Part shown: in pieces, positions 4,449 to 58,945 of the stretch
How positions within the stretch are numbered: position 1 is the first letter of the stretch
Layout: every line of letters starts with the position of its first letter
Assembly: GCA_020161265.1 (NCBI GenBank)
Contig: JAIUOC010000003.1
Location: 363,024 to 427,023, forward strand
Reading direction: 5' to 3'
DNA: 64,000 bases
DNA from: Chloroflexota bacterium
GTDB taxonomy: Bacteria; Chloroflexota; Chloroflexia; Chloroflexales; Herpetosiphonaceae
Notes under the pieces: model-generated
What the model saw: the letters and a program-made list of their open reading frames with translations, nothing else
Databases searched by the model: none
What the model was told of the DNA's origin: nothing
Position numbers and translations under genes: made by a program

Positions 4449-6881
4449 ATGACCCGAGAAAAAGACCGCCCTCGTACAGGTACCGAGCGCACTTTACCGT
4501 TGGTGGTATTGGGCGAAATTGTGATCATGCCGCACATGACTGTGCCGCTCCAGGTTGGGCAGGGCAAGTCTTATCGGGCCATGGAACAAGCCATGGAAGA
4601 CGATCAACATGTCTTGTTGATCTTTGTTTCTGAGGCTGAAATTGAAGCTTATAAAGGCCACGAACCCCAACAACTACCCAAAGTTGGCGTGGTCGCTCGC
4701 TTGGAAGATTTCTCCCAATTGCCCGATGGCACGGTAAAAATTGTGCTCGAAGGGATTACCCGCGCTGAGATTGTTGATTGTGTTCAGAGCGATCCCTTCT
4801 ATCGTGTAGCTTGCCGCTACTTGCCAGATCAAGAACCAAAAGGCATCGAAGTCGATGCTTTGATGGATACGGTCAAACAACAAATTACTGAATTTGTCGA
4901 TTATTTAGGCGAAATTCCGCAAGAAGCGGTTGCCTTTGTGCACCGAATCACGACACCTGGCCATTTAGCCGATTTGGTGACCTATGGCCCAGCCTTCTCG
5001 TTCCAAGATCGCTTGGAATTATTGAATGAGTTGGAGCCGTTGGCTCGTTTGAATCGGGTGCAGGTGATTTTGGCTCGTCAATTAGAGCTGTTGCGGCTCC
5101 GCGCCAAAATTCAATCTGATACCAAAGAAGTGCTCGATCAAGGCCAAAAAGAGTATTTCTTGCGCGAACAAATGCGGGTCATTCGCCGTGAACTAGGCGA
5201 AGATGACGATGGCGATGATCCAATTGATGAATTGCGCCGCAAAGTCAATGAACTGAATGCGCCGCAATATGTCAAAGATCAAGCCTTGCACGAAATTAAG
5301 CGTCTCGCCCAACAAGGCATGAATTCGCCCGAAGCTGGCGTGATTCGCACTTACCTTGATTGGATTATTGCTTTGCCGTGGAATGCCGATCAAGTCGCCG
5401 CAATTTCGTTGGTGCAATCACGCCAAGTGCTTGATGAAGATCATTATGGCTTGGAAAAAGTCAAAGAGCGAATTTTGGAATATCTGGCGGTGCGCAAGCT
5501 TGCTGGCAGCAAAATGCGTTCGCCAATTTTGTGCTTCGTCGGCCCGCCAGGCGTGGGTAAAACCAGCCTTGGGCGCTCGATTGCTCGCGCCTTGGATCGC
5601 CCATTCGTGCGCCAGTCGCTGGGTGGTGTACACGATGAGGCCGAGATTCGCGGCCACCGCCGAACTTACATCGGAGCCATGCCAGGCCGGATTATTCAAG
5701 GCATGAAAACCGCCAAATCGCGACAAGCAGTCTTTATGCTTGATGAAATCGACAAAATTGGCAATGATTTCCGTGGCGACCCAACTTCAGCTCTGCTAGA
5801 AGTGCTTGATCCTGAGCAAAACAACACGTTCTCGGATCACTATTTGGAAATTCCATTTGATTTGAGCCAAGTGGTGTTTGTGGCAACCGCTAACCAACTT
5901 GAGCCAATTCCAGCGCCGCTGCGCGACCGGATGGAAATTATCGAGATTGGCGGCTACACCGAGGACGAAAAACTAGCAATTGCTCAAGGCTTTTTGTTGC
6001 CCAAGCAACGCGAGTTCCATGGCCTCGAAAGCAGCCAGTTGGAATTAACCGATGCTGCGATCTTGAAGTTGATTCGCGAATATACCCGTGAAGCTGGCGT
6101 GCGTAACCTTGAGCGCGAAGTTGCGGCCTTGTGTCGCAAAATTGCCCGTAAGGTAGCTGAATCGCAGGATGAAGAAGCGCCACAAGAAGGCAAGAAGCGC
6201 CGTAAGAAGGCCAAAAAAGCCGAGCCAACCAAGTTCTTGATTGACGCTGCTGATGTGCCAATCTACCTTGGACCTGAACATTTCAGCTTTGGCATGGCCG
6301 AAGTTTCCGATCAAATTGGGGTCGCGACTGGAGTTGCTTGGACACCAACGGGCGGCGATATTCTTTCGTTCGAAGTTTTGCCATTGACTGGCAAAGGCGA
6401 ATTGCGCCTCACTGGTCAATTGGGCGATGTGATGAAGGAATCGGCGCAAGCAGCCATGTCGTATGTGCGGTATCGCGCCAAAGAGTTGGGCATCGAGCCA
6501 AATTACTTCGACGAGCATTCGATCCATATTCACGTGCCCGAGGGTGCAGTGCCTAAAGATGGCCCATCGGCTGGGATTACATTAACGATTGCGTTGATCT
6601 CCGCGATGACTGGCCGAGCGGTGCGCCGCGATGTTGCCATGACAGGCGAAGTCACCTTGCGCGGGCGGGTCTTGCCGATTGGTGGCTTGAAAGAAAAAAC
6701 CTTAGCCGCCCATCGCGCAGGCATCAAAACGTTTATCTTGCCCAAGGAAAACGCCAAAGATATTGTTGATCTGCCTGAAAAAGTGCGCCAAGATCTGCAA
6801 TTGATTCCGGTTGAAACTATGGATGAAGTGCTGACAATTGCATTGATGCCATTTATTCGCCAAGACGTGATCGCCAGCTAA
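4449..6881 (+). CDS. lon: ATP-dependent Lon protease (La)
   Basis: 810 aa. LON N-terminal domain, AAA+ Walker A GPPGVGKTS, protease catalytic Ser in DGPSAGIT, Lys in KEKTLAAHRAGIK. There is a lysine-rich insertion (EGKKRRKKAKKAEPTK) between the AAA and protease domains. Confidence 0.95.
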   Translation: MTREKDRPRTGTERTLPLVVLGEIVIMPHMTVPLQVGQGKSYRAMEQAMEDDQHVLLIFVSEAEIEAYKGHEPQQLPKVGVVARLEDFSQLPDGTVKIVLEGITRAEIVDCVQSDPFYRVACRYLPDQEPKGIEVDALMDTVKQQITEFVDYLGEIPQEAVAFVHRITTPGHLADLVTYGPAFSFQDRLELLNELEPLARLNRVQVILARQLELLRLRAKIQSDTKEVLDQGQKEYFLREQMRVIRRELGEDDDGDDPIDELRRKVNELNAPQYVKDQALHEIKRLAQQGMNSPEAGVIRTYLDWIIALPWNADQVAAISLVQSRQVLDEDHYGLEKVKERILEYLAVRKLAGSKMRSPILCFVGPPGVGKTSLGRSIARALDRPFVRQSLGGVHDEAEIRGHRRTYIGAMPGRIIQGMKTAKSRQAVFMLDEIDKIGNDFRGDPTSALLEVLDPEQNNTFSDHYLEIPFDLSQVVFVATANQLEPIPAPLRDRMEIIEIGGYTEDEKLAIAQGFLLPKQREFHGLESSQLELTDAAILKLIREYTREAGVRNLEREVAALCRKIARKVAESQDEEAPQEGKKRRKKAKKAEPTKFLIDAADVPIYLGPEHFSFGMAEVSDQIGVATGVAWTPTGGDILSFEVLPLTGKGELRLTGQLGDVMKESAQAAMSYVRYRAKELGIEPNYFDEHSIHIHVPEGAVPKDGPSAGITLTIALISAMTGRAVRRDVAMTGEVTLRGRVLPIGGLKEKTLAAHRAGIKTFILPKENAKDIVDLPEKVRQDLQLIPVETMDEVLTIALMPFIRQDVIAS

Positions 6882-6900
6882 ATTAAGCTGATCGCAAGCA

Positions 6901-6948
6901 AAAACGCCCCTTGCCTAGATATTTTAGGTGAGGGGCGTTTCTTTAAGG
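6901..6948. terminator. rho-independent terminator hairpin (AACGCCCCT ... AGGGGCGTT followed by TCTTTAAGG) after lon, shared with the convergent Nudix gene
   Basis: 9-bp GC-rich inverted repeat at 6903-6911 and 6931-6939, followed by a T-rich tract. Confidence 0.5.
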
Positions 6949-6952
6949 ATGA

Positions 6953-7125
6953 ATTATGAGGGATGAGGGATGAAGTTGCGCTATACAACACAAAAGCAGA
7001 GTATTTAACGCAGAGAAACATAAGAGATCAGATGTCAGGAGTCAGGGGTCAGAGCTTTGGGATAAGCAACCTTCGCGATCTTCGCGTTCTTCGTGGTTTC
7101 AACTTTCGTACCCTGCGTTGCATAG
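6953..7125. repeat. mosaic intergenic repeat R1 (GGGATGA heptamers, CAGGGGTCAG module, CTTCGCG/CTTCGTG 9-nt periodic module)
   Basis: gagggatgagggatgaag at 6958-6975; gtcaggagtcaggggtcagag at 7033-7054; ccttcgcgatcttcgcgttcttcgtggtttcaac at 7070-7103. It is homologous to elements at 38828-38900 and 39469-39543. Confidence 0.6.
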
Positions 7126-7582
7126 TTTGGCTACCTGCAACACATGGCGATAAACTGGCACAAAGGCTGGTGGCAGGTAGTCGCAAATTTCAGCAAGTGT
7201 GATCATCCGGCGTTGGCGAATTTCAAATTGAGGTTGCCATGGCTGGATTTGAACTTGGGCTAGCCAAAAACTTCGCACCAGCACTAAGTCTTGTTCAACT
7301 CCTGTCAGACATTGGCTTTGGCAAAAGCCCAATAACTGGGCAGATTGCACCTTGGCACAAGCTTCCTCGGCAACTTCACGCCGCAAGGTTGCTTCCCACG
7401 ATTCACCAATTTCGCTGCGCCCGGCAGGCACATCCCAAACGAGGCCATTTTGGCTCACCACGATAACTTGTTGCTCAGGAGTGAGGCAAATGCCTGCCGA
7501 GCCATGGGCCCTTGCCTGTTGGCTCGGCAGCGGCGGGATACCAAACCACTTGCCATGTTTCTTGATGCGTGTTAATTTGCCA
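7099..7582 (-). CDS. NUDIX hydrolase
   Basis: Nudix box GESWEATLRREVAEEAC. The ORF track starts at 7461, but the in-frame upstream sequence (TRIKKHGKWFGIPPLPSQQARAHGSAGICLTPEQQVIVV) is Nudix-like, so a GTG start near 7582 is likely. The last six codons lie inside repeat element R1. Confidence 0.65.
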
Positions 7583-23759: not shown

Positions 23760-23997
23760 CTAGGGGTCGGCTATCCGGCGCATAGTTTTGAGCCACGAAG
23801 AACACGCAAATTGTTTTTTGATCCACGAAGAGCACGAAGCACACGAAGGTTAGATTTTTTGCTGTGAATTGCCCGAAACATGTTCCGATAGCCCAAAGCC
23901 TATCGCCATTCAGATCTCTGCGCCTCTGCGTTGAATAGTGTGATCCTCAATTTTTGATGGTTGCTTTCATCCCTCATCCCTCATCCTTCATCCTTAC
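23760..23997. repeat. mosaic intergenic repeat R2 (CACGAAG modules, CTATAGC/CGATAGC module, CTCTGCG module, TCATCCC heptamer array)
   Basis: gagccacgaagaacacg...gatccacgaagagcacgaagcacacgaagg; ccgatagcccaaagcctatcgccat; tctctgcgcctctgcgtt; catccctcatccctcatccttcatcctta. Confidence 0.6.
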
Positions 23998-24138
23998 AAA
24001 TTACTTGCTTTAGTACGCTTGACAGTTGGGCTACCTTGCGACTATGCTAAGCTACGATTTGCTGCTTTAGAACGCGCCATTTGTGATGATTCAATGCTTG
24101 GTTGCTGCTCAATTGAGCCATACAACCATTATTGAATC

Positions 24139-34875: not shown

Positions 34876-35075
34876 GGAGCAGGGGTCAGAATTCAGGGGT
34901 TAGGCTTCAGGAAACACGGCTATAGGCGCTAGGCTAGCGGAACAATTTGTGGAATGACAATGATCTCAAAAAGCCAAAAGCCTATAGCCGCTAGCCTATG
35001 GATTAAATGCCGATCCCTCGCCCCCGGCATTCCACTAGTCCCTGATCCCTCGCCCCTCGTCCCTAGCCCCCTAAG
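34876..35075. repeat. mosaic intergenic repeat R3
   Basis: gggagcaggggtcagaattcaggggttagg; ggctataggcgctaggctagcgg ... aaaagccaaaagcctatagccgctagcctatgg; ccgatccctcgcccc...ccctgatccctcgcccctcgtccctagcccc. Confidence 0.6.
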
Positions 35076-35099: not shown

Positions 35100-36623
35100 A
35101 TGCAGCGCCGACGATGGATATTAATCGCAATCAGCCTGACGCTGCTTCTAGCGAGTGCTGGCTTGAGTTTAGCTCGCACAACTGGCCTGTTGGATGACCC
35201 GAATTGCACAACCAGCGATTGTACGTTTTTACCGTTGGCCTTGAAAAATTCTAGTGAAATTACGCCAATGCCAACAAATGCGGCAACCGCAACCAGTGTG
35301 ATGCTCTCGCCAACTGCAACATCGAGCACTACCCCAACCGCCGCGCCAACCGCAACCAGTACCTCAACTAATGTGCCAACTGCGACGAACACCGCAACCG
35401 ATGTGCCAACCGCGACGAACACACCAACTGCTGTACCAACCGCAACCAGTACGCCAACCGACGTGCCAACTGCGACCAATACACCAACTGATGTGCCAAC
35501 CGCGACCAACATACCAACTGATGTGCCAACCGTGACCAACACACCAACCCATACATCAACGCCAACGAGTACATCAACCCATACATCAACGCCGACCAGC
35601 ACGGCTACGGCAACCCCACGTCCACCAACCACCACCCCAACCACGATTGTGGGTACGGCGACCCCAACCACACCGCCCAACTTCACACGGATTGTTTGGT
35701 CTACGGCTGTGCCAACACCATTTAGCTATCCTTTTGCGGCGGTTGAAGCTCAAGGCGCAGTGGTTGGCGGCAAATTGTATGTCTTTGGTGGCTTCGGTCA
35801 GCCTGGTTTATCGGGCGATACACCCTCGCGCTTGTCGAACGTGTATGATCCAGTGGCCAATACCTGGACAGCGATTGCGCCCTTGGAGCGAGGTTTGACT
35901 CACGTTGGTACTGCCACCGATGGTCAAAAGATCTTCCTTGTTGGTGGCTATATTGAAGATTTTGATGGAGTTGGCCAGATTTTCGGCTCACGGGTTTCGC
36001 GCTATTACGACACCGCCACCAATACCTACACCAACTTGCCGGTGATTCCGATTCAACGGGCGGCGGGCCAGCTGTATTATCTTGATCGGAAGTTGCATTA
36101 TGTTGGTGGAACCTATTACAAACAGGTTGATGTTGGCACGCATTTTGTGCTCGATTTGAATGATTTGGCGACTGGTTGGGTGACCCAGACCAACCAACTA
36201 ACCTATGCCGAGTTGCCCAATCCACGTCAACATGCTGGTGGGGTGGTGCTTGATGGCAAACTCTACTATATTGGCGGTCAGCATGGCCACGATGGTAGTT
36301 TAACCGTCGATAACGATGTGCATCGCTATGATCCCGCTACGAATATGTGGGAACAAATGGCCGATATTCCGTTGGCCTTGAACCATATTAGCCATTCGAC
36401 CTTGGCGCTTGGCGGTAAAATTTTCGTCTTTGCTGGCCAAACCACCAACGGAACTAAACATAATACGATTTATGTGTATGATCCGGCCACGAATACTTGG
36501 GCACAAATGCCTAACAACTTGCCAGCAACCCGTTATTCAGGCATTATTGGCGAGATTAATGGCACGTTGTATTTCACGACTGGCGGCGGAACCAACAGCT
36601 ATCGTGGAATTCCCACACCATAG
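35100..36623 (+). CDS. secreted/surface protein with signal anchor, Thr/Pro-rich repeat linker and C-terminal Kelch (galactose-oxidase-like) beta-propeller
   Basis: N-terminal hydrophobic segment. ([10 protein letters not shown])n linker. Kelch signatures [50 protein letters not shown]. Confidence 0.75.
35340..35601 (+). repeat. in-frame tandem repeat: about 7 x 30 bp (encoding [10 protein letters not shown]) followed by 2 x 27 bp (HTSTPTSTS)
   Basis: Direct reading: ccaactgatgtgccaaccgcgaccaacaca units with point variants. Confidence 0.8.
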
Positions 36624-37726: not shown

Positions 37727-38652
37727 TTCCAGGCCAAATTTCGATCATCATCGTGAGCTATAACAGCGCCGCACTATTGCCCGCTTGTTTTGCAAGCCTC
37801 GCCACGACCAACGACGACAATTATCAATTAATTGTGGTTGATAATGCTTCGAGCGATGGCTCTGCTGAGTTGGTACGTCAGCAGTATCCGCAGGTTCAGC
37901 TGATTGCCAATCAGCATAATCATGGCTTTGGTGCGGCATGTAATCAAGGTATGGCGGCGGCGACTGGCGAATATTTTTTATTTTTCAATCCCGATGTACA
38001 AATTACGCCCAATTGGCTGACACTCTTGCGCCAGCACCTAGCAGCCAATCCCCAAGCGGCAATTATTTGCCCAACCACCTTGTATCCCAATCAAGCGCCG
38101 CCAACCCGTCATGGTGTGGCGATCACGGCGGCTGTGCCAGGCTGTGCAATGCTTTTGCGGCGCAGCGCATGGCAAGCAATTGGCGGTTTTGACCCAGCTA
38201 TTTTCTTGTATTGGGAAGATACCGAGTTGTGTTGGCGGGCGTGGTTGTTGGGTTGGCAGGTGCTCGAAGATTTCGAGGCGCTGGTGGTACACGAGCGTGG
38301 TGGTAGCGGCGGCGGCCAGCGCTGGCTGGTCGAGAGCAGCAAGAATGGCTTGTATTGCTACCTGAAGTTGCGGCCTTGGTCGGCGGTTTTGGGCTATAGC
38401 CTGCGCATGCTGGCCAAAACGGCGATTGTAAGTTTGTGCCAGCGCAATCTGGCAATGCTGAATGTTTGGATTTGGCATATTCGTAATCTCAAGCAAACCC
38501 TCGCCACGCGCCGCAGCATTCAAGCCCAAATCAGCGCTGATCGCAGCGAAGTTGAGCGTTTGATCAAGCAGCATTTAGCGCGTGGCAAACGGGAACGCAA
38601 CGAAAATCAAAAGTCAAAAGGCAAAAGTCAGAAGGCAAAAGGCAAAAGTTAG
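37723..38652 (+). CDS. glycosyltransferase family 2, with a repeat-derived Lys-rich C-terminal tail
   Basis: ATGA overlap with GT1. IIIVSYNSAALL...VVDNASSDGS (GT2 DXD region). The last about 20 codons (RERNENQKSKGKSQKAKGKS) are encoded by a CAAAAG-type simple repeat. Confidence 0.8.
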   Translation: MIPGQISIIIVSYNSAALLPACFASLATTNDDNYQLIVVDNASSDGSAELVRQQYPQVQLIANQHNHGFGAACNQGMAAATGEYFLFFNPDVQITPNWLTLLRQHLAANPQAAIICPTTLYPNQAPPTRHGVAITAAVPGCAMLLRRSAWQAIGGFDPAIFLYWEDTELCWRAWLLGWQVLEDFEALVVHERGGSGGGQRWLVESSKNGLYCYLKLRPWSAVLGYSLRMLAKTAIVSLCQRNLAMLNVWIWHIRNLKQTLATRRSIQAQISADRSEVERLIKQHLARGKRERNENQKSKGKSQKAKGKS

Positions 38653-38662
38653 AAGGCAAAAG
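38603..38662. repeat. left arm of an inverted repeat pair (AAAATCAAAAGTCA...GAAGGCAAAAGG); partner at 39648-39677
   Basis: The reverse complement of 39648-39677 (ataaaatcaaaagtcagaaggcaaaaaaaa) matches this segment. Confidence 0.4.
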
Positions 38663-38935
38663 GATGAGACTGGATAGCGCAGAGACGCAGAGGATTCGAG
38701 GGGCTAGGATTCAGAATTTAACGGAGAGACGCAGAGGATTCGAGGGGCTAGGATTCAGGGGTCACAGGGGCTGGAAATTTAAGCATAATCATATAAATCT
38801 GGGTCAATCTGTGGCTAAAAATAAAACTTCGCGATCTTCGCGCCCTTCGTGGTTTCAACCCTCGCACCCTTCGTGTCCTTCATGCGCTTCGTGGATCGAT
38901 ATTCATTCGCTGGCCTGGGTTAATATTGAGGAGAT
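38653..38935. repeat. mosaic intergenic repeat R4, including a 45-bp direct duplication and the conserved CTTCGYG element
   Basis: agagacgcagaggattcgaggggctaggattcag occurs twice (38681-38714 and 38726-38759). cttcgcgatcttcgcgcccttcgtggtttcaaccctcgcacccttcgtgtccttcatgcgcttcgtggatcg at 38828-38900. Confidence 0.6.
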
Positions 38936-38939
38936 GTAG

Positions 38940-39443
38940 ATGAACATAACAATTGTTGATGGCTTTACTCCAACCAATGAGGCTGAAGTTGCGGCTTTTG
39001 AGCAAGAGTTGGGCTGTCGTCTGCCAGAAGATTACCGCGCTTTTTTGCTACAACATAACGGCGGTCAGCCTGAGCTAACAGTTTTTGATATGAATAGTAA
39101 CTTGCTGCCTGATGATCAAAGTATAATCCACTATTTTTTATCCTTAGACCCAGCAGCGGAATCCTCTGAAATTCGTCAAGTAATCAGAACATTTACAGAA
39201 TATGAGACGCGGATTCCACCAGAGCTTTTGCCAATTGCCCACGATCTTGGAGGCAACCTAATTTGCTTGGGAATTCGTGGCGAGCAGCGGGGCAAAGTTT
39301 ATTTTTGGGATCATGAATTTGAGCTAGAAACTGAAGAAGAAGGCGATCTGTATTACAACGTTTCGTGTTGTAGCCCTTCATTTCAAGCATTCGTTGATAG
39401 CTTGTTGCCTGAATCCTCGCTTGATGTTGACGAGGCAGCATAG
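38940..39443 (+). CDS. SMI1/KNR4 (SUKH-1) family protein, immunity-protein-like
   Basis: 167 aa. LPEDYRAFLLQHNGG, IGD-like LGGNLICLGIRGEQRGKVYFWDHE, acidic C-terminus. AT-richer than its surroundings. Confidence 0.75.
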   Translation: MNITIVDGFTPTNEAEVAAFEQELGCRLPEDYRAFLLQHNGGQPELTVFDMNSNLLPDDQSIIHYFLSLDPAAESSEIRQVIRTFTEYETRIPPELLPIAHDLGGNLICLGIRGEQRGKVYFWDHEFELETEEEGDLYYNVSCCSPSFQAFVDSLLPESSLDVDEAA

Positions 39444-39647
39444 AGATCGGCATGAGCTTTGGGTTACATAACCTTCGCGATCTTCGTGCCCTTCGTGGTT
39501 TCAACCCTTGCGCCCTTCGTGTCCTTCGTGCGCTTCGTGGATCAGAACGGATGGCGAGAGGCTAAAGGCACTTAATCTTCCGAAAAAAGTCCAATAGCCT
39601 ATCACCATCTATACTCTGCGCTACAACCCGCTCCTTATGTTCGATGT
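39444..39647. repeat. mosaic intergenic repeat R5 (second full copy of the conserved about 75-bp CTTCGYG element)
   Basis: gagctttgggttacataaccttcgcgatcttcgtgcccttcgtggtttcaacccttgcgcccttcgtgtccttcgtgcgcttcgtggatcag, then a CTATAGC/CTCTGCG module. Confidence 0.6.
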
Positions 39648-39677
39648 TTTTTTTGCCTTCTGACTTTTGATTTTATA
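39648..39677. repeat. right arm of the inverted repeat pair bounding the SUKH cassette
   Basis: ttttttttgccttctgacttttgattttat, overlapping the udk stop codon. Confidence 0.4.
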
Positions 39678-40509: not shown

Positions 40510-41406
40510 ATGGGTATTCGTGGCTTATTTGTGGGAATCAATAGTTATAGCGAGCGGCCACTCAAGGGTTGTGTCAACGATGTAAGCGTAGTTCGTGAGT
40601 TGTTCAAAGCCCAACACGCTGCTGCCGATGATCAACTGCGTTTGATCACCGATGCTGCGGCTACGCGCCAAGCTATTATTGATAATTTGGGCTGGCTCGC
40701 CGAACCGCTCAACGATGGGCAGCCGGAAATTCGAATTTTTCACTATGCTGGCCATGGCGTACAACAGCCTGATCAAAATGGCGATGAACCTGATGGTGCT
40801 GATGAATGCCTCGCGCCAATTGATTATCCCAGCGCTGGCTTGCTGAGCGATGACCATTTAGCCGAGCTATATCAAGGATTTTTGGGTACAACGCGGCTCA
40901 TTTTGTTGATGGATTGCTGTCATTCGGGCACGATCAGCAAAGACCCTTTTTCCGATATTCGGTATCGCACCTTAACTCCCGCCAAAGTGGTTTATGATGA
41001 AATTCGTGCCAAGAAGCAGGCCTATCAACAACACCAGGTTGATAGCGTAGCGCAACAAATTCTTGATCTGCAACAACGGAGCGCCGACCCCAGCGAAATT
41101 GCTAAGTTTGCAGGCGAGTTGGTCAGTTCGTTGCAAAAACAGAGTTTTGGCCAACGCCCACAGCACGAAAACACCATTTTGATTTCAGCCTGCAAGGCCG
41201 AGCAAGTTGCCGCCGATGCCAATTTTGGCGGAACCTACCACGGTGCCATGACCTTCTTTTTGAAAAATATTCTCAGCGAAAATCCCCAAATTAGCTATGC
41301 CAACCTTGGCGAACAGCTTCGCCGTAGCCTCTACGACAATAAGTTTCAACAAATTCCCCAACTTGAGTGCCCAAATAGTCTAATTAACCAGCCCTTCCTA
41401 CGTTAA
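40510..41406 (+). CDS. caspase-like peptidase (C14 family, metacaspase/HetF-type)
   Basis: Catalytic dyad context HYAGHG (His) and LLMDCCHSG (Cys). 298 aa, no signal peptide. Confidence 0.8.
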   Translation: MGIRGLFVGINSYSERPLKGCVNDVSVVRELFKAQHAAADDQLRLITDAAATRQAIIDNLGWLAEPLNDGQPEIRIFHYAGHGVQQPDQNGDEPDGADECLAPIDYPSAGLLSDDHLAELYQGFLGTTRLILLMDCCHSGTISKDPFSDIRYRTLTPAKVVYDEIRAKKQAYQQHQVDSVAQQILDLQQRSADPSEIAKFAGELVSSLQKQSFGQRPQHENTILISACKAEQVAADANFGGTYHGAMTFFLKNILSENPQISYANLGEQLRRSLYDNKFQQIPQLECPNSLINQPFLR

Positions 41407-42487: not shown

Positions 42488-42527
42488 CCCTCCAAAATGC
42501 TTGAATGGTTTACAAGGAGATGTGATT

Positions 42528-44465
42528 ATGGCTTGTGCTGAGATTGTCAGCGTCGCGATTTATCCTCCCGTTGGCTTTGCCCGCGTCGGAAATAGCCCAA
42601 ATGAGTTTTTTTATGGCCCCGAAGTGCTGGGTGCACCCCAAGTTGACCCCGATTTGTTTCGCGATCCGAGTGGCGCGATCAAACGCCAAGCGGCGCGGTT
42701 TCGGGTTTATGGCTTGAATGCCGCTGGTGAGGTGATTTGCGAGTTAAACCAAACCAATCCTGATGTGCAAGAAATTGTTTGGACGGCGCAGCTCGCCAAT
42801 CAAAAAGCCGCGTGGTATGAATTTATCCAAGCACTGGATATTCCGGCCTCGGCTGATGGCAAAATTGTTAGCAAGCGCCGCAATGCCGATGTAACTGAGC
42901 GCGATCAATTGACGATCGATGGTGGCACGCGCAGCATTTGTGGCTTGAATGTCAATCCTCAGGGCGAAGAGGCGATCTATGCCTTTGATCACGGCGCATT
43001 CTTTGGTAAGCAAGTTTATTTGGGCGAATTGCGCACCGATCAACAGGGCAATTTGATTGTGCTGGGCGGGCGGGGTCACTCAGCTTCGGCCCATGGCAAG
43101 CCCTTAACCACCTTTGCCGATAACGATGATTGGCATGATGATACTGCCGATGGCCCGATTGAGGCCGTGGTTAAGCTGAGCGATGGACGGGTTTTGCAGG
43201 CAACTCATGCTTGGGTGATTGTTGCGCCGCCTGATTATGCGCCAGGCACAAATTCGATTATGACAGGCTATGATTTGCTGTTTGAAGTGGCGATGCAGCT
43301 TGATTCGACGCTTGCGCCAGCCAAGCCACGTTTCAGCAGCGAAATTTATCCGTTGCTCTCACGGTTTAGCCAATTGCAATGGGTTAATGCTGGCTTTGCG
43401 CGGAGTTTTGGTTGGGGCAGCCCCAGCGATTTCAATAATCCTGAGTTGATCGCTCGTTTGGGCGATCCTAGTGCTGCCAGCGAACCGTTGCGCCAAGCGG
43501 TTTTGGCTCAAATGCGCAATCCTAGCAATCCCTATATTGATCCCGAAGGCTTGCCATTGTTTTATGGCGATGCGATTACGCTCAACACCAAAACCACCGA
43601 TCCCCAAGAGTGGCAGGCAATTTTGCCTAGCCAATATCGTTGGCTAGAGCAATGGGCCAATGGCGATTTTATTGCCGATGGCTTGCCCGTGGTCAGGCCG
43701 TGGGAGCAGCTTGATCCCGCTGAGCAGGCCTACAATCTCACGCGGGCGGCGCTTGATGCAACCTTGGGCGGGCCGTTTCACCCCGGCTGCGAATTCACTT
43801 GGCCGTTACGCCATACCTCGATGTATGTAGCACCATTTCGACTCAAACGCCGCACCAGCCCTGAGCCAGATTGGGGCGATACGCTCGATGCGGCTACTGC
43901 CTTAGCTCCCGATGGGATGTTGTATGCCAGCGCTGCTGGGGCAATTACGCGTTGGATGGCCGTGCCTTGGCAAACCGATACCTCAAGCTGTCTCTCGGCC
44001 TATATGGGCTATGCCGGAACTTATTTGCCAACTTTTTGGCCCGCTCGTGTGCCCAACGATGTGCTTAGCCAAGAGAGCTACCAGATTATTATGAACCCTG
44101 ATGCTACGCCTGAAGAGCGTGCCCAAGCCTTCGCACCGACTGCCCGCCGCAAGTGGCTGCGCGGCATGGTCTACACCGAGAGCATTCCACCAGGCCATAT
44201 TCCAACCGTGCCAGCAATTACTAAATTTACCAACGAATGGGATACCGTGGGCATTATCATCGCCCAAACTGGGCCTGAACATAGCGCTAGCTTCCCGCAA
44301 ACGCTATGGGTTGAAACAGGCCGCCACGTTGAAGCTCAGGCTCCCCAATTAACCCGTAGCCTAGCCGCCGAGCCAGAAACTGATCTGGTTGATAGCGACC
44401 TCAATTGGCCACAACAACGCCTCAAGCGAGGACGCAAAAATGCTGCCGAAGCCAATAACGATTGA
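42528..44465 (+). CDS. LodA-like amino-acid oxidase (CTQ quinoprotein family; L-lysine epsilon-oxidase / glycine oxidase GoxA relatives)
   Basis: AAGGAGA RBS. N-terminal LodA signature IYPPVGFARVGNS. Conserved Asp-x3-Cys (WQTDTSSC) with a Trp about 60 residues downstream (RRKWLRG), as for the cysteine tryptophylquinone pair. Confidence 0.65.
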   Translation: MACAEIVSVAIYPPVGFARVGNSPNEFFYGPEVLGAPQVDPDLFRDPSGAIKRQAARFRVYGLNAAGEVICELNQTNPDVQEIVWTAQLANQKAAWYEFIQALDIPASADGKIVSKRRNADVTERDQLTIDGGTRSICGLNVNPQGEEAIYAFDHGAFFGKQVYLGELRTDQQGNLIVLGGRGHSASAHGKPLTTFADNDDWHDDTADGPIEAVVKLSDGRVLQATHAWVIVAPPDYAPGTNSIMTGYDLLFEVAMQLDSTLAPAKPRFSSEIYPLLSRFSQLQWVNAGFARSFGWGSPSDFNNPELIARLGDPSAASEPLRQAVLAQMRNPSNPYIDPEGLPLFYGDAITLNTKTTDPQEWQAILPSQYRWLEQWANGDFIADGLPVVRPWEQLDPAEQAYNLTRAALDATLGGPFHPGCEFTWPLRHTSMYVAPFRLKRRTSPEPDWGDTLDAATALAPDGMLYASAAGAITRWMAVPWQTDTSSCLSAYMGYAGTYLPTFWPARVPNDVLSQESYQIIMNPDATPEERAQAFAPTARRKWLRGMVYTESIPPGHIPTVPAITKFTNEWDTVGIIIAQTGPEHSASFPQTLWVETGRHVEAQAPQLTRSLAAEPETDLVDSDLNWPQQRLKRGRKNAAEANND

Positions 44466-45510: not shown

Positions 45511-45712
45511 CAAAAACCCTGAATTATGCTAAGATGCAGCAATCAAATTTTTGGCTGCTGCATGGAGTCAAACTCGTCCATACACTCCACCCATCAATTG
45601 CTCCATCACCCACAGCAGCATGCTTCAATCTGCTACGTTTGCTAGAGAATCAAACGTTGGTAGCCACAATTGTTGTGTGAGTTGAATTCCATTTGGCTTG
45701 GAAGGAGCTACG

Positions 45713-47086
45713 ATGGGCCATGATCATGCGCTGGTTATCGGCGCAAGCATTAGCGGTTTAGCGACCGCGCATATCCTCAGCCACTATTTTGCTCAAGTAA
45801 CGATTATTGAACGTGATAGTTTGCCCGACTCGATTGAGGTTCGATCTGGTTTGCCGCAAGCTCGCCACCTGCATCTGTTGTTGATGCGCGGAGCGCGTGA
45901 GCTTGAAACGCTCTTTCCTGGCATTGGGCAAGAACTCGTGGCTCACGGCGCACAGTCGGTCGATTTGATGAATGATTATCGCTACTTGATGGCTGGTGGT
46001 TGGGCCAAACCGCATCAATCAGCCCATCGCACAATTTCGGCCAGCCGCCCGCTCTACGATTGGGTGCTGTTGCAGCGTTTACGCCAAAACCCCAAAATTC
46101 GGATCGAAACCCAAACCGATGTGCTTGGCTTGGTTGGGGATTTGCGCCATGTGCGGGGCATTAACACCAAGCGCCGCGATACTGGGGTTGAGCAACAATT
46201 TCTAGCCGAACTCTTGGTTGATTGTAGTGGGCGTTCATCCAAGCTTGATCAATGGCTACAAGCGCTGGGTTGCCAAGCAGTACCCGAAACCGTGATTGCC
46301 TCGAATGTTGGCTACTGCTCACGACTCTATGCCAAGCCCGAAGGCTGGAACGAATGGAAGGGCTTATTTGTGCGCCAGCGACCATTGGTTAATCCACGCG
46401 GCGCGATTTTAACCGAGATTGAAGGCAATCGCTGGATGGTGACCTGTGGTGGTTTTAATGAGGCCAAGCCACCCCTTGATGAGAGCGAATGGCTGAATTG
46501 GCTCAACCAATTGCGCTCGCCAATTTTGTATGAATTGTTGAGTAAGGCCCAGCCAATTAGCCCATTGGTTGGTTTTGGCCGTACCGAAAATCGCCAACGC
46601 CATTATGAGCAAATTAGCCTGCCTGCGGGAGTGGTGGCGTTGGGTGATGCTGTTTGTGCGTTTAATCCAATTTATGGACAAGGTATTAGCAATGCCACCT
46701 TGGGCGCGATCTTGCTGAGCCAGCATTTAAAAGAACAAGATCGGGCTTCGGCAGCCTGGGGTCAGCGCTTTCAACAAGCACTCGCTAAAAGCAATCAATT
46801 TCCTTGGAGCATTGCGGTGGGCGAAGATGCCCGCTATAACGCCAGCGTCAAGCGTTCGTTTGGCGCAACTCTGCTGCGCAACTACTTCGACCAAATTAAC
46901 CTAGCATCAAGCAATAATCCGGTTGTGCTCAACCGCTTCACGCCGATTGTGCATATGACTGGCAATCCCAGTGGCTTACTGCACCCAGCGATGATCTGGA
47001 ATGTTATTAAAGGTCGCTTGAAGCCCCAAACGACCAACCCAACGCCCTCGATCCCTACCATTCTCAGCGCTAGCCAAGGAGCGTAA
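45713..47086 (+). CDS. class A FAD-dependent monooxygenase-like flavoprotein, paralog 1 of 3
   Basis: AAGGAG RBS. GxGxxG (VIGASISGL), DG-type motif (LVDCSGRSSKL), GD motif (LGDAVCAFNPIYGQGIS). Confidence 0.75.
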   Translation: MGHDHALVIGASISGLATAHILSHYFAQVTIIERDSLPDSIEVRSGLPQARHLHLLLMRGARELETLFPGIGQELVAHGAQSVDLMNDYRYLMAGGWAKPHQSAHRTISASRPLYDWVLLQRLRQNPKIRIETQTDVLGLVGDLRHVRGINTKRRDTGVEQQFLAELLVDCSGRSSKLDQWLQALGCQAVPETVIASNVGYCSRLYAKPEGWNEWKGLFVRQRPLVNPRGAILTEIEGNRWMVTCGGFNEAKPPLDESEWLNWLNQLRSPILYELLSKAQPISPLVGFGRTENRQRHYEQISLPAGVVALGDAVCAFNPIYGQGISNATLGAILLSQHLKEQDRASAAWGQRFQQALAKSNQFPWSIAVGEDARYNASVKRSFGATLLRNYFDQINLASSNNPVVLNRFTPIVHMTGNPSGLLHPAMIWNVIKGRLKPQTTNPTPSIPTILSASQGA

Positions 47087-47088
47087 CC

Positions 47089-48450
47089 ATGCTACAAGAT
47101 CATGCAATTGTGATTGGAGCCAGTATCAGCGGCTTGATTACCGCTCATATGCTGAGCCACCATTATGGTCGAGTCAGTGTGCTCGAACGTGATAGCTTGC
47201 CCGAGGCTGGCGATTTTCGCGCGGGCGTGCCCCAAGGTCGCCATGTGCATTTGTTGCTGATTCGCGGCGCACGTGAGCTGGAAACGCTTTTTCCAGGCAT
47301 CAACCAAGAACTGCAAGCTCTTGGGGCACAAGCCGTCGATATGATCAACGATTGTCGCTATTACCTCAAAAATGGCTGGACAGTACCTCAGCCAACCGAA
47401 TTGAAAACGCTCTCGGCAACTCGCCCTTTGTTTGATTGGGCAATTCGGCGGCGCTTATTGCAAAACCCCAAGATTCAGTTTTTGGCCCAACACGATGCCC
47501 TGAATCTGATTGGCAATAGCCGTCATATTCAAGGGGTGCAGGTGCGCAATCGCCAAGATGGCAGCGAACAGAGCTTGCATGCTGATCTGGTTGTCGATGC
47601 CAGCGGGCGCAATTCCAAATTGGCGGAATGGTTGGGCGAGCTTGGTTGTGGCAAAGTTAGCGAAACTGTGCTTGATGCCAAACTTGGCTATACTTCGCGG
47701 CTCTATGCCAAGCCCGAAGGTTGGAAAGAATGGAAAGGCCTGTTTGTGATGCAACAGCCGCCGACCATTCCCAAAGGTGCGATTTTGCTCGAAGTTGAGG
47801 GCAATCGCTGGATTGTGACTGGCGGTGGGGTCAATCATGCCAAGCCACCAACCGATGAAGCTGGTTTTATGCAATGGCTGCGCGAATTGCCCTCGCCAAT
47901 TTTGGCCGATTTATTGAGTAAATCGCAGCCGCTTAGCCCAACCAGTGGCTATGGTCGTACCGAAAATCGCCAACGCCACTACGAGCGTATGCACCTGCCA
48001 GCCGGAGTAATTGCCTTGGGTGATGCCGTTTGTGCCTTTAATCCGGTGTATGGGCAAGGTATTAGCACCGCCACCTTGGGGGCAATCTTGCTTGGTACAC
48101 ATTTAAAAGAGCAAGATCGTGGCTCGGCAGCATGGGGCCAGCGGTTCCAACAAGCCTTAGCCAAGAACAATCAATTCCCTTGGGAAATGGCGAGCGGCGA
48201 GGATTCGCGTTATGATTCATCATTCAAACGCCCATTTTTCAGCAAGCTGATTGCGCCCTATTTTGATCAAATTAATCAGGCCAGTTTGAATAGCAACGTG
48301 GTGTTCACTCAATTTATTAAAACGATTCACCTGATCGACAATCCGAATGCATTGTTTCATCCACGGGTGTTTATCCCCGTGCTGCTGAGCAAAATTCGGC
48401 CTAAATATTCTGATGCAGTGCCAAACTTGCCTTTGCAGGTCAACGTATAG
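47089..48450 (+). CDS. class A FAD-dependent monooxygenase-like flavoprotein, paralog 2 of 3 (about 65% identical to paralog 1)
   Basis: Same three motifs (VIGASISGL; VVDASGRNSKL; LGDAVCAFNPVYGQGIS). Starts 2 nt after the paralog-1 stop. Confidence 0.75.
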   Translation: MLQDHAIVIGASISGLITAHMLSHHYGRVSVLERDSLPEAGDFRAGVPQGRHVHLLLIRGARELETLFPGINQELQALGAQAVDMINDCRYYLKNGWTVPQPTELKTLSATRPLFDWAIRRRLLQNPKIQFLAQHDALNLIGNSRHIQGVQVRNRQDGSEQSLHADLVVDASGRNSKLAEWLGELGCGKVSETVLDAKLGYTSRLYAKPEGWKEWKGLFVMQQPPTIPKGAILLEVEGNRWIVTGGGVNHAKPPTDEAGFMQWLRELPSPILADLLSKSQPLSPTSGYGRTENRQRHYERMHLPAGVIALGDAVCAFNPVYGQGISTATLGAILLGTHLKEQDRGSAAWGQRFQQALAKNNQFPWEMASGEDSRYDSSFKRPFFSKLIAPYFDQINQASLNSNVVFTQFIKTIHLIDNPNALFHPRVFIPVLLSKIRPKYSDAVPNLPLQVNV

Positions 48451-48524
48451 CATAGGCAACTGAATCAAGCCCTGCTATACTACTAGAATAGGCAGGAGTA
48501 CATTTCAGATTTGGGAGGTGTGCT

Positions 48525-49883
48525 ATGAGACGAGACCATGCGATTGTGATCGGGGCCAGCATCGGTGGATTATTGAGTGCCCGCGTGTTGAGTGATGTGT
48601 ATGCCAAAGTGACGATTTTGGAGCGCGATACGTTGCCCGATGGGGTGCAATTTCGGGCAGGCGTGCCGCAAGGTCGCCAATTGCACTTGCTGCTGATGCG
48701 CGGCTTGCTCGAATTAGAAAAACTGTTCCCCAAATTGCGCGAAGATATGAAGGCGCTTGGCGGCAACGAGCTGGATCTGATGAACGATTGCCGCTATTTA
48801 TTTGCGGCAGGCTGGGCCGAACCACGACCCTCGGATTATCGCAGCATCATCGCCACCCGCCCCTTGTTCGATGCAGCGATTCTTGGGCGGATTCGCCAAA
48901 TTCCCAATATTGAAATTCAAACTCGCCAAGAAGTGACGGATTTGCTCTTTCACGGGCGGCAAGTTGTCGGGGTCAAGCTGCGCAATCGTGATACTGGCGA
49001 GCAGCATGAACTTAACGCCAACTTGGTTGTCGATGCGGCTGGCCGCCCATCCAAGCTGCCCGAATGGCTAGAACAACATCAATTTGGGCGCGTCAAAGAG
49101 ACCATTTACAAATCGGATGTGGGTTATGCCACCAGAATGTACACCGCGCCAGCCGATTGGCAAGGCTGGCCAGCGATCTTTGTGATGCCGATGCCGCCGC
49201 ATATTCGCCATGGTGCAACCTTCCTTAAAGTTGAAAACGATCAATGGCTCTTGACGATTGGCGGAGTTGGCAGCCAGCGCCCACCAACCGATAGCGCTGA
49301 GTTTGAGGCTTGGCTGGCGCGGATGCGCACACCATTGATTGCTGAAATTACCCAGAAATTTACGCCTGCCAGCCAAGTGTATGGCTATGCCAAAACCGAA
49401 AATCGTTGGGTGCATTACGAACAACTACCCGTTATGCCCGCTGGCCTGATTGCTATTGCCGATAGCGTGTGTGCCTTGAATCCAATTTATGGCCAAGGCA
49501 TCACCAATACTGCCATGAGCACGCAGGTTTTGGCCAAGCATTTGCAACGCGAAGGCATTGGCAGCGCACCTTGGGCCTTGAGTTTCCAAAAAGCCTTGGC
49601 ACGCCGCAACAAAGCGGGCTGGCTCACCACCATCAGCGAAGATTCACGGCTGGCTGATACGCCAACCTATCGCCCAATCTTGCCGATTCGCGTGCTGCAA
49701 TGGTATAGCGATAAAGTGAATTTGGCGGCGGCGGGCAATCGGGCTGCTACCAACGCAATGGTTGGTGCGATTCATATGATTGGCTCAGCTGCGAGCTTAT
49801 TTACGCCCAAAGTATTGCTTGCCGCCTCGCGCTTTTTCCGTTCACAACCGCCAAGCAGTGTGCCAGCAGCACCCAATAAATAA
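48525..49883 (+). CDS. class A FAD-dependent monooxygenase-like flavoprotein, paralog 3 of 3 (more divergent)
   Basis: GGGAGG RBS. VIGASIGGL; VVDAAGRPSKL; IADSVCALNPIYGQGIT. Confidence 0.75.
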   Translation: MRRDHAIVIGASIGGLLSARVLSDVYAKVTILERDTLPDGVQFRAGVPQGRQLHLLLMRGLLELEKLFPKLREDMKALGGNELDLMNDCRYLFAAGWAEPRPSDYRSIIATRPLFDAAILGRIRQIPNIEIQTRQEVTDLLFHGRQVVGVKLRNRDTGEQHELNANLVVDAAGRPSKLPEWLEQHQFGRVKETIYKSDVGYATRMYTAPADWQGWPAIFVMPMPPHIRHGATFLKVENDQWLLTIGGVGSQRPPTDSAEFEAWLARMRTPLIAEITQKFTPASQVYGYAKTENRWVHYEQLPVMPAGLIAIADSVCALNPIYGQGITNTAMSTQVLAKHLQREGIGSAPWALSFQKALARRNKAGWLTTISEDSRLADTPTYRPILPIRVLQWYSDKVNLAAAGNRAATNAMVGAIHMIGSAASLFTPKVLLAASRFFRSQPPSSVPAAPNK

Positions 49884-52284: not shown

Positions 52285-52470
52285 ACTTATGAGGGATGAA
52301 ATTTGGTATTTAACGTCGCGAAAATATGGATGAACATAATTCGTGAAATTCGTGGCTAATTGGAATATCAAAAGCCAAAAGCTTATAGTCATTCTTCGTG
52401 TCCTTCGTGGATCGAAAACGCCCAGTCCCCGACCTCCAATAACCGATCCCCAGTTAAACAACAACACGCC
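52285..52470. repeat. mosaic intergenic repeat R6
   Basis: tatgagggatgaaa; aaaagccaaaagcttatagtcattcttcgtgtccttcgtggatcg; cccagtccccgacctccaataaccgatcccc. Confidence 0.55.
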
Positions 52471-53049: not shown

Positions 53050-53285
53050 TAGCCACGAACTGAAATCACGAAGTATTCGAAGGGGTCAGGATTCAGGGAC
53101 GAGGGGGTCAGATTTGAATTAACAAACCCAATCAGCAATCCTGACTCCTGATCGCTGGCCCCTGGCCCCTAAATCCTCTCTGCGCCTCTGCGTTAAAATC
53201 CCAATCCCCGACAACCGATCCCCAACCCCTTTGTTCTATATTTTCATCCTTCATCCCTCATCCTTCATCCTTACCCAGATTGAGC
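53050..53285. repeat. mosaic intergenic repeat R7
   Basis: agccacgaactgaaatcacgaag; ggggtcaggattcagggacgagggggtcag; ctctctgcgcctctgcgtt; cccaatccccgacaaccgatccccaacccc; catccttcatccctcatccttcatcctta. Confidence 0.6.
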
Positions 53286-58681: not shown

Positions 58682-58734
58682 ACAACATTACCTCATTGTA
58701 ATACGTGGAGATTGGTTGTCGGGAATCGGTCGTT

Positions 58735-58945
58735 TTGATCCACGAAGGACACGAAGGGAGATTAGGCTATCGACTGATGGCTATCGGCTTTTGGAGTAGA
58801 GAATTTTGAAATGATTAAAATATTCCGATAGCCTATAGCCCATAGCCATTAATCCTCTGCGCTAAATGCCGCTCCCTAAATCCCTATATTCTCTGCTGTT
58901 AACTTCATCCCTCATCCTTCATCCTTCATCCCTTCGTGCTGTCAT
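58735..58945. repeat. mosaic intergenic repeat R8
   Basis: gatccacgaaggacacgaagggag; ctatcgactgatggctatcgg; ccgatagcctatagcccatagccat; aatcctctgcgct; catccctcatccttcatccttcatccc. Confidence 0.6.

Follow-up and report, generated by a model that had tools for sequence, protein, structure and literature searches.

A 64,000-nt stretch of a Herpetosiphonaceae genome (contig JAIUOC010000003.1, positions 363,024 to 427,023; hereafter the window) carries short tandem arrays of the word CTTCGYG on both sides of a gene for a SMI1/KNR4 (SUKH-1) immunity-type protein. It was found that this element is the 3′-terminal segment of a polar, modular intergenic repeat that occurs throughout the genus Herpetosiphon. 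The 75-bp unit described in an initial annotation is one length variant of a variable array. The mosaics formed by the repeat modules persist at their spacers, and their content turns over far quicker than the flanking genes. The CTTCGTG array also recurs in other phyla. The sequence comparisons point, with about an even chance in my judgement, to spacer repeats maintained by recombination, whose heptads are putative words bound by a protein at the DNA level.

Arrays and mosaics in the window

The array unit is a constant 7-nt word, CTTCG(C/T)G, followed by two free bases (NN). The period is therefore 9 nt, and Tandem Repeats Finder reported the 9-nt periodicity that the initial annotation had pointed out. 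One to three CTTCGCG+NN units close in CTTCGYGGTTTC (GGTTTC; block C), a short linker follows, and then one to three CTTCGTG+NN units close in CTTCGTGGATC, mostly followed by A or AAAA (GGATC(A)AAA; blocks V-E). I compared the window with 44 loci from five Herpetosiphon species (aurantiacus, giganteus, geysericola, llansteffanensis, and sp. NSE202). The 19 two-block arrays found there share this architecture, vary in unit number, and span 46-71 nt, which does not fit the fixed 75-mer proposed before. The two free bases are mostly TC (34), CT (20), CG (13), or CC (10), plus others. The CTTCGYG units abut at the 9-nt period, with no intervening spacers of the kind that define a CRISPR array.

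Copy 1 consists of three CTTCGYG+NN units closing in GGTTTCAAC, a degenerate unit CCTCGCACC, and three units closing in CTTCGTGGATC. It lies upstream of the SUKH gene and ends 42 nt before the start codon, and copy 2 begins 30 nt past the stop codon. Thus, the two copies form a direct repeat around the gene (93% identity over 74 nt). Three near-identical copies had been claimed; this holds for these two and fails for the third, in which block C is intact (7071-7107, closing in GGTTTCAAC, where a 5′ half had been placed near 7055-7123) and block V is degenerate (7108-7141). Likewise, the claimed lead-in (gagctttggg...aacc) was found before the copies at 39455 and 7044, and not at 38827, where aatctgggtcaatctgtggctaaaaataaaa precedes the array. 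The shorter fragments that had been listed elsewhere in the window were recovered as 3′-end versions of the array (Table 1).

Is this more than low-complexity sequence? Allowing at most one mismatch, CTTCGYGNNCTTCGYG has 14 matches in the window against 0.09 expected, and none of 100 shuffles reached 14; the repeat is genuinely dispersed and conserved, as first supposed. In an unbiased comparison of all 7-mers, CACGAAG/CTTCGTG was the word most enriched in the spacers of the window, with 19 occurrences in 7.2 kb of spacers versus two in 57 kb of genes (62-fold).

The arrays are part of larger mosaics. Modules were tokenised on both strands, a lower-case letter denoting an inverted module: H is GGGATGA, K is CAAAAGN, M is CATAGAR, G is GGGGTCAGG, Q is ACGCAGAGGCGCAGAG, Y is GGCTATNGGC, and T or R is AATCTGTG or AATTCGTG, closing in GGCTAAAAA, while C, V, and E denote the CTTCGYG blocks and the GGATC terminus. 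The order is polar, running from GGGATGA, CAAAAGN, or GGGGTCAGG to ACGCAGAG, GGCTATNGG, AATCTGTG, CTTCGCG, and finally CTTCGTG-GGATC. The resulting strings include HQYCVE, QHYTYTCVEg, and the mirrored evctyqh. Counted pairwise, H precedes V in 96 cases against none, C precedes V in 57 against 5, Q precedes V in 65 against 7, and H precedes Q in 147 against 32; H and V lie on the same strand in 96 cases versus five on opposite strands. Module Y is frequently present as an inverted Y...y pair, and an inverted g module optionally follows GGATC, mirroring an upstream G. Modules H, K, G, and Y have a period of 7 nt, and the window contains period-7 arrays of TCATCCC, CAAAAGG, ATAGCCC, and GTCAGGA.

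Mosaics occupy 8 of the 20 window spacers of at least 150 nt and account for about 23% of spacer bases. The mosaic upstream of the SUKH gene has two Q-G units, ACGCAGAGG...GGGGCTAGG, at 38675-38758 and a T module, aatctgggtcaatctgtggctaaaaa, at 38795-38820. In the downstream mosaic, inverted y, q, and k modules (ccaatagcctatcacc, ctctgcgct, and gccttctgacttttgatttt) follow the C-V-E blocks and mirror the left mosaic. A promoter-like TTGACA-N17-TATGCT lies at about 24031-24059, next to the mosaic at 23790-23997 and upstream of cheW.

Table 1. Repeat arrays, mosaics and the bracketed gene in the window
Feature	Position	Strand	Evidence or remarks
Two-block array copy 1 (C-V-E)	38824/38827-38897	+	repeat finder, pattern matches
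Two-block array copy 2 (C-V-E)	39470/39473-39543	+	repeat finder, pattern matches
Copy 3	7068/7071-7141	+	74% identity; only the 5′ part in common
Short V-E block CTTCGTGTCCTTCGTGGATC	52394-52414	+	pattern matches; tRNA-Ser 3′ end 80 nt away
Short V-E block, + strand reads GATCCACGAAGGACACGAAGG	58737-58757	-	pattern matches
V-E block, three units (GATCCACGAAGAGCACGAAGCACACGAAGG)	23820-23849	-	plus a degenerate stretch at 23791-23806
Mosaic upstream of SUKH	38595-38897	+	K array (CAAAAGN, 38603-38663), then Q-G units, G, T, C-V-E
Mosaic downstream of SUKH	39455-39670	both	Y-like remnant (gagctttggg) and C-V-E on +
Mosaic H-Q-G-(Y-like)-C	6944-7141	+	begins directly after terminator-like hairpin 6900-6943
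Mosaic e-v-y-q-h (mirrored order)	23790-23997	-	tokenisation
Mosaic (H)-R-K/y-V-E-g	52290-52450	+	DUF3224/tRNA-Ser spacer
Mosaic e-v-Y-y-q-h	58721-58935	-	glpK/ORF 59030 spacer; Y...y is an inverted pair
Mosaic G-y-g, no CTTCGYG block	34880-35070		tokenisation
Mosaic G-q-g-h, no CTTCGYG block	53082-53275		tokenisation
SMI1/KNR4 (SUKH-1) immunity-type gene, 167 aa	38940-39443	+	between copies 1 and 2

Several further observations concern these mosaics. A GC-rich, terminator-like hairpin (aaaaacgcccc...ggggcgtttc) stands 3′ of the gene at 4449-6881, and the mosaic at 6944-7141 would lie outside the transcription unit of that gene because it begins directly past the hairpin. The tetranucleotide GATC is moderately enriched in the eight mosaics (10.1/kb versus 5.9/kb overall) and lies within several modules (GGATC, CGCGATC, and GGGGATCGG). 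A minus-strand open reading frame (ORF) of the NUDIX family (7099-7461) terminates within copy 3, where the TCA of GGTTTCAAC serves as its stop codon, and its last 12 or so residues are encoded by the degenerate V block, outside the Pfam domain (residues 6-108 of 120). Another ORF (38664-38939, 91 aa) has no Pfam match, lies wholly within a mosaic, and is probably spurious. Such mosaics generate spurious ORFs and altered gene ends, which is relevant to annotation.

Persistence and turnover across Herpetosiphon

A collection of sequences was scanned with the conserved terminus CTTCGTGNNCTTCGTGGATC, and at least 120 stretches matched. In 408 kb of Herpetosiphon sequence 107 arrays were counted; the density is roughly one array per 8 kb, and a genome probably contains hundreds of arrays. 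Among the matches listed, the strands of the arrays are mixed along the H. aurantiacus chromosome (CP000875), and no bias relative to replication was seen.

Do the mosaics keep their places? The window is 80-89% identical to overlapping segments of H. llansteffanensis and H. geysericola. In the tRNA-Ser/DUF3224 spacer, the terminal V-E block lies at the same position in H. llansteffanensis, with about 190 nt of extra modules. Where the window has two units in the glpK spacer, a complete two-block array and a T module, AATCTGTG, are present in H. geysericola. A relative with a 96%-identical PRK protein has different first modules directly past the stop codon, in unchanged order. In the three spacers compared, no empty orthologous site was found, and mosaics were present in every species examined. 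Different loci within one genome carry mosaics that are 67-83% identical over 80-260 nt. Orthologues of the GT2-PRK spacer were also sought via PRK homologues, where synteny was gone or the contigs were broken at repeats. Contigs from short-read metagenomes and drafts end in or beside mosaics (the start of L001, the ends of L122 and L123, and both ends of L140). The repeats fragment short-read assemblies of Herpetosiphon and its relatives, and three contigs here end in them.

The SUKH gene is an orphan gene between GT2 and PRK (window 38940-39443; L138, 2600-3930; L139, 2780-3760; L140). Its orthologues are 91% identical in Herpetosiphon sp. NSE202, 82% in H. gulosus, and 80% in H. llansteffanensis, and the H. 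gulosus neighbourhood is identical (GT4-GT2-SUKH-PRK-caspase). The gene is ancestral at this locus; a recent insertion of it between two copies of the element is ruled out by orthologues at the same locus in four species. Direct mosaic repeats bracket it over 135 nt at 96% identity in H. gulosus and over 85 and 60 nt (about 150 nt in total) at 87-90% in NSE202, and in three species they differ in unit number, NN spacers, and extent. Since these repeats are alike within a genome (87-96%) but different between genomes, the comparison indicates concerted evolution, with repeated unequal exchange or gene conversion on a local scale, and not two insertions. The two near-identical copies in the window would then be one such direct repeat, homogenised on either side of a SUKH gene that is itself ancestral, and not two mobile insertions.

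The same arrangement might be taken for an excisable cassette, with the copies acting as attC-like or dif-like recombination sites. A small gene with its ribosome-binding site does lie inside direct repeats in three species, and in H. llansteffanensis it was assembled on an 899-nt contig of its own. I consider this very improbable. The gene stays at one locus in four species and hence does not move, and the repeats on its two sides consist of the usual mosaic sequence, which many spacers contain without any gene in between. Other same-strand array pairs flanking genes have only a 35-nt core in common. No recombinase is among the neighbours of the SUKH gene, which are GT2, PRK, and caspase genes, and the flanks are direct and non-palindromic, unlike the imperfect-palindrome architecture of attC.

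It was also assessed whether the arrays resemble miniature inverted-repeat transposable elements (MITEs), as the initial annotation had suggested. Like MITEs, they are short, non-coding, dispersed, intergenic, and assembly-breaking, and the inverted forms of other phyla described below are superficially MITE-like. Unlike MITEs, the Herpetosiphon elements lack terminal inverted repeats (an inverted partner lies within 150 nt in only two of the 107 arrays, a direct partner in 63), a fixed length, near-identical dispersed copies, and empty orthologous sites. The longest matches between the flanks of 19 elements averaged 1.84 nt, versus 1.99 nt for shuffled partners, and none reached 5 nt; target-site duplications beyond the controls were thus not found, and they were likewise unseen in 20 hairpin forms from other taxa. 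No transposase-like family recurred among the ORFs in 940 kb of loci around the arrays, where the largest recurrent clusters are ABC ATPases, histidine kinases, and similar proteins. The MITE idea was rejected because every sign sought was missing, from inverted ends and target duplications to discrete copies, empty sites, and a transposase nearby. A phage or plasmid origin was rejected as well: no array matched a plasmid, and four of the nine matches on viral contigs are true arrays, the rest being chance coding matches.

The heptad array in other phyla and the tests for mobility and RNA function

For the 18 specified bases of the terminus, I estimate about 17 chance matches in the whole collection. 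About 76 stretches beyond Herpetosiphon were among the matches listed, several of them on megabase contigs, and some are coding coincidences (e.g., L036). They include other Chloroflexota (Caldilineaceae, Anaerolineae, Thermoflexales, and Roseiflexus) as well as Planctomycetota, Opitutales, Vicinamibacterales/Blastocatellia, Entotheonella, Nitrospirota, Sumerlaeota, Desulfobacterota-type, Bacteroidota, and Thiobacillaceae labels. In summary, CTTCGTG-N2 arrays closing in GGATC were found in eight or more other phyla, and most of these arrays are inverted pairs. A test of ORF overlap for these matches was dropped because stop-free frames are common in high-GC metagenome-assembled genomes (MAGs).

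An inverted TCCACGAAG lies at most 220 nt upstream in 36 of the 81 non-Herpetosiphon matches listed; by chance the share would be about 2%, and in Herpetosiphon it is 3 of 51. The inverted pairs form very stable hairpins of about 70-100 nt (z scores of -9.6 and -8.0), and those of Caldilineaceae have a CGTCGAC loop in common. Loci of the hairpin form include L009, L017, L019, L026, L047, L063, L092, L099, and L113. The free bases do not covary between the arms of the hairpins: they are complementary in 15 of 47 such pairs, versus 14.5 expected by permutation. Further arrays beyond the match and its partner are rare in these loci.

Two lineages have their own variants. In a Thermoflexus species (L121), the V-E block is itself repeated at a higher order: at least four units of about 32 nt, each (TTCGTGTC)(CTTCGTGTC)CTTCGTGGATCAATTT, stand in tandem, and inverted copies lie upstream of them. 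In Opitutales (L018, L021, L090, and L107), the V-E block lies within a distinct, lineage-specific mosaic, [GATCAC]n-TTTA-[CTTCGTGNN]3-GGATC-[CAATTCCTAATTC]n, which is repeated at three loci of one genome.

The dispersed, extragenic, multicopy arrays might be elements of the repetitive extragenic palindrome (REP) or REPIN kind, mobilised in trans: the inverted pairs of other phyla would serve as hairpin substrates for a single-copy HUH (RAYT-type) or other transposase, and the one-armed arrays of Herpetosiphon would have been expanded or have decayed from them; the MITE idea is included here. The strong hairpins in Caldilineaceae and others, the few copies on viral contigs, the optional inverted G...g brackets around some mosaics, and a spread across phyla that fits horizontal transfer speak for such an origin. 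It is nevertheless improbable. The lack of target-site duplications applies to the direct and the hairpin form, inverted partners and discrete near-identical copies are wanting in Herpetosiphon, the orthologous sites are always occupied, and neither a plasmid match nor a recurring transposase-like family was found in the searches above. REP sequences are, moreover, normally species-specific, whereas the CTTCGTG word is common to several phyla.

Bacterial interspersed mosaic elements (BIMEs) of Enterobacteria are a close formal parallel. They too are extragenic and high-copy, with several short motifs in fixed order and variable unit numbers; their positions are kept and their content varies between relatives, and protein binding at the DNA level has been proposed for them. 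BIMEs are bound by IHF, gyrase, and Pol I. The REP unit of BIMEs, however, is an imperfect palindrome in alternating orientation, unlike the direct tandem heptads and nonamers of single polarity in Herpetosiphon. The sequences are unrelated, and no RAYT (Y1 transposase) gene was among the recurrent ORF families in the 940 kb of loci.

The arrays might also work as an RNA-level cis element in 5′ or 3′ untranslated regions, for example the SUKH leader, to be recognised there by the ribosome or an RNA-binding protein. On the reverse strand, CACGAAGGA, the array is rich in purines and resembles a Shine-Dalgarno sequence, and in each of the four species the SUKH ribosome-binding site has a C(-V-E) block 35-45 nt upstream of it. 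GGATC stands as close as 19-26 nt to the start codon at several loci, and because of this short distance the array there must be transcribed or contain the promoter. The inverted forms elsewhere would make long RNA hairpins. I regard an RNA role as unlikely all the same, slightly more so than mobilisation in trans. At many loci a canonical promoter stands between the array and the gene, which leaves the array outside that transcript. Relative to the gene that follows the GGATC end, the orientation is the same in 23 cases and opposite in 23 (ORF map), and the flank combinations are spread evenly (12/11/10/11). On neither strand does folding of the 77-nt element surpass that of dinucleotide shuffles (z scores of -0.03, -0.36, +0.88, and +1.43). 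With Rfam at the gathering score, tRNA-Ser was the sole match in the window, the best sub-threshold hit being CRISPR-DR9 (20.9 bits versus 45 required), and nothing was found at gathering or permissive thresholds for 18 other loci, including hairpin forms. A structured RNA, in line with the functional RNA that the initial annotation had offered as one option, was therefore rejected on folding, Rfam, and the absence of compensatory NN pairing in the hairpins.

A putative DNA-level word and its known relatives

A DNA word read by a protein appears to be the most economical explanation, because the 7-nt word, with its 2-nt spacer left free, serves in both direct and inverted arrays whatever the direction of transcription, and stays conserved from phylum to phylum without structural covariation. 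Of the options in the initial annotation, a protein-binding unit is thus the best guess at a function. The heptads would most likely act on double-stranded DNA as word arrays for a sequence-specific DNA-binding protein, of a nucleoid-organising, insulator, or upstream-activator kind, and the CTTCGTG-N2 arrays of other phyla would be bound by a related protein. In Herpetosiphon, the mosaics hold their spacers across species and are remodelled fast as units and modules are gained or lost; copies close to each other are homogenised, presumably by recombination or gene conversion. Here the pattern is plain and the mechanism is presumed from it.

The setting of the rRNA operons is suggestive in this respect. 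At two H. aurantiacus rRNA operons (L103, 6418-6622; L072, reverse complement, about 5461-5517), a gap of 13 nt separates the end of the C-V-E block from the downstream -35 element of TTGACA-N17-TAGAAT, and a second site of this kind lies about 100 nt further on. The duplicated rrn sequence (1583 nt, 99.6%) begins exactly at the first CTTCGCG unit. Upstream activating sites of well-studied rRNA promoters occupy a comparable position. By this analogy, the placement favours a word read by a protein.

Known arrays of short operators give a second analogy. Heptads and other short units are bound cooperatively by small repressors, as in the omega heptads of pSM19035, the MetJ boxes, and the Fur hexamer arrays. 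Like these, the arrays consist of contiguous short words, direct in Herpetosiphon or inverted elsewhere, in variable number, near promoters, with a non-conserved spacer. Operator arrays are, however, few per replicon and tied to promoters, whereas the Herpetosiphon arrays are many per genome, have no fixed promoter relation, and have a 2-nt spacer. The initial annotation had proposed that the 9-nt periodicity phases a protein along one DNA face. This does not hold: since B-DNA repeats about every 10.5 bp, successive 9-bp units turn by about -51 degrees.

A number of points weigh against a binding role. The 9-bp period is unlike the helical repeat. Canonical promoters lie 22-52 nt past GGATC at some loci, and at others the start codon already follows within the 19-26 nt given above; with distances this inconsistent among loci, a fixed promoter relationship was rejected. 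The loci were chosen by the V-E pattern itself, which makes the conservation of the last two units circular. The token-pair counts are not independent of each other, the gene maps are crude ORF maps, and the taxon labels outside Herpetosiphon are the titles of MAG records taken at face value. The persistence of the mosaics (three loci, six comparisons) could reflect slow loss and not selection.

A serious rival is that the mosaics are functionless, selfish or neutral minisatellite-like DNA, which arises and spreads by slippage, unequal crossing-over, and ectopic gene conversion and is put up with solely between genes, the heptad itself being a product of homogenisation. It is a real possibility, and I hold it clearly less probable than putative binding words. 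Such a recombination-driven repeat explains the turnover well, being in keeping with very rapid change between flanking genes that are 80-96% identical, variable unit numbers, local homogenisation of neighbouring copies, the lack of any orientation bias to genes, the inconsistent distances to promoters and start codons, and the absence of an associated gene among the ORF families near the arrays. It does not explain the cross-phylum word: the heptad, the period, and the GGATC terminus are found again in eight or more other phyla, NN being independent between arms, which is hard for drift to produce. Slippage duplicates whole 9-mers, yet adjacent units hold the 7-mer while the 2-nt spacer differs. 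The strict module order and polarity exceed random slippage, and mosaics were present at every orthologous spacer examined.

The reading of the heptads as putative binding words can be extended further, and the extension is rather doubtful. (CTTCGTG-N2)n-GGATC might be the recognition array of a DNA-binding protein or a mobilising enzyme across Chloroflexota and at least seven other phyla (genomes of Planctomycetota, Acidobacteriota, Nitrospirota, Entotheonella, Bacteroidota, Desulfobacterota-type, and Thiobacillaceae bacteria were considered here). In Herpetosiphon it would have multiplied to hundreds of one-armed copies within ordered, hypervariable, concertedly evolving mosaics, which would organise the DNA between transcription units, including that just upstream of rRNA promoters.

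Resemblances to several known words were also considered, and none is close enough. The DnaA box has two key positions mismatched (TGATCCACG versus TTATCCACA). The IHF consensus, parS, the V(D)J heptamer/nonamer, and Tn3-type ends fared no better, and the 16S 3′ end has TGGATCA alone in common. In the literature searched, neither the array sequence nor a description of it was found. A 'mobile promoter' of Herpetosiphon is mentioned in PMC3488235.

Among intergenic repeats, the short tandemly repeated repetitive sequences (STRRs) of cyanobacteria are tandem 7-bp intergenic units of several families, of unknown function and sometimes hairpin-forming (PMC2670836). The mosaics resemble them as tandem heptanucleotide units in the spacers of a filamentous bacterium. 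The words differ from those of the STRR families (e.g., CCCCAGT), the host belongs to another phylum, Chloroflexota, and the CTTCGYG blocks have a 9-nt period (seven conserved and two free bases) with GGTTTC and GGATC termini. To my knowledge, a strict multi-module order has not been described for STRRs. The arrays appear to be lineage-specific intergenic mosaic repeats, nearest in kind to BIMEs and STRRs, and the heptad array shared across phyla seems to be the more novel part.

Two other features of the window were noted. A tandem repeat with a 30-nt period (35271-35616; about seven copies, 77% matches) lies within a 507-aa Kelch-repeat gene (35100-36623) and probably encodes a Thr/Pro/Asn-rich linker upstream of the propeller. 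At 45698-49883, three tandem paralogous genes for FAD-dependent monooxygenases are spaced by 1376 and 1436 nt (62-77% DNA identity), adjoining a LodA-type lysine-oxidase-like gene (42501-44465) and a caspase-domain gene (40510-41406).

Should the mosaics have no function, they would amount to a common sort of lineage-specific repeat, and the word found across phyla would even then call for an explanation. Mosaics that are ordered yet hypervariable offer a clean natural setting in which to follow concerted evolution and the shuffling of modules in the non-coding DNA of bacteria. Binding words, if that is what the heptads are, would be an undescribed cis element in distant and experimentally little-studied phyla. 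This would provide a handle on the organisation of intergenic DNA in large, filamentous, or complex bacteria, a question that the STRRs have left open in cyanobacteria for decades.

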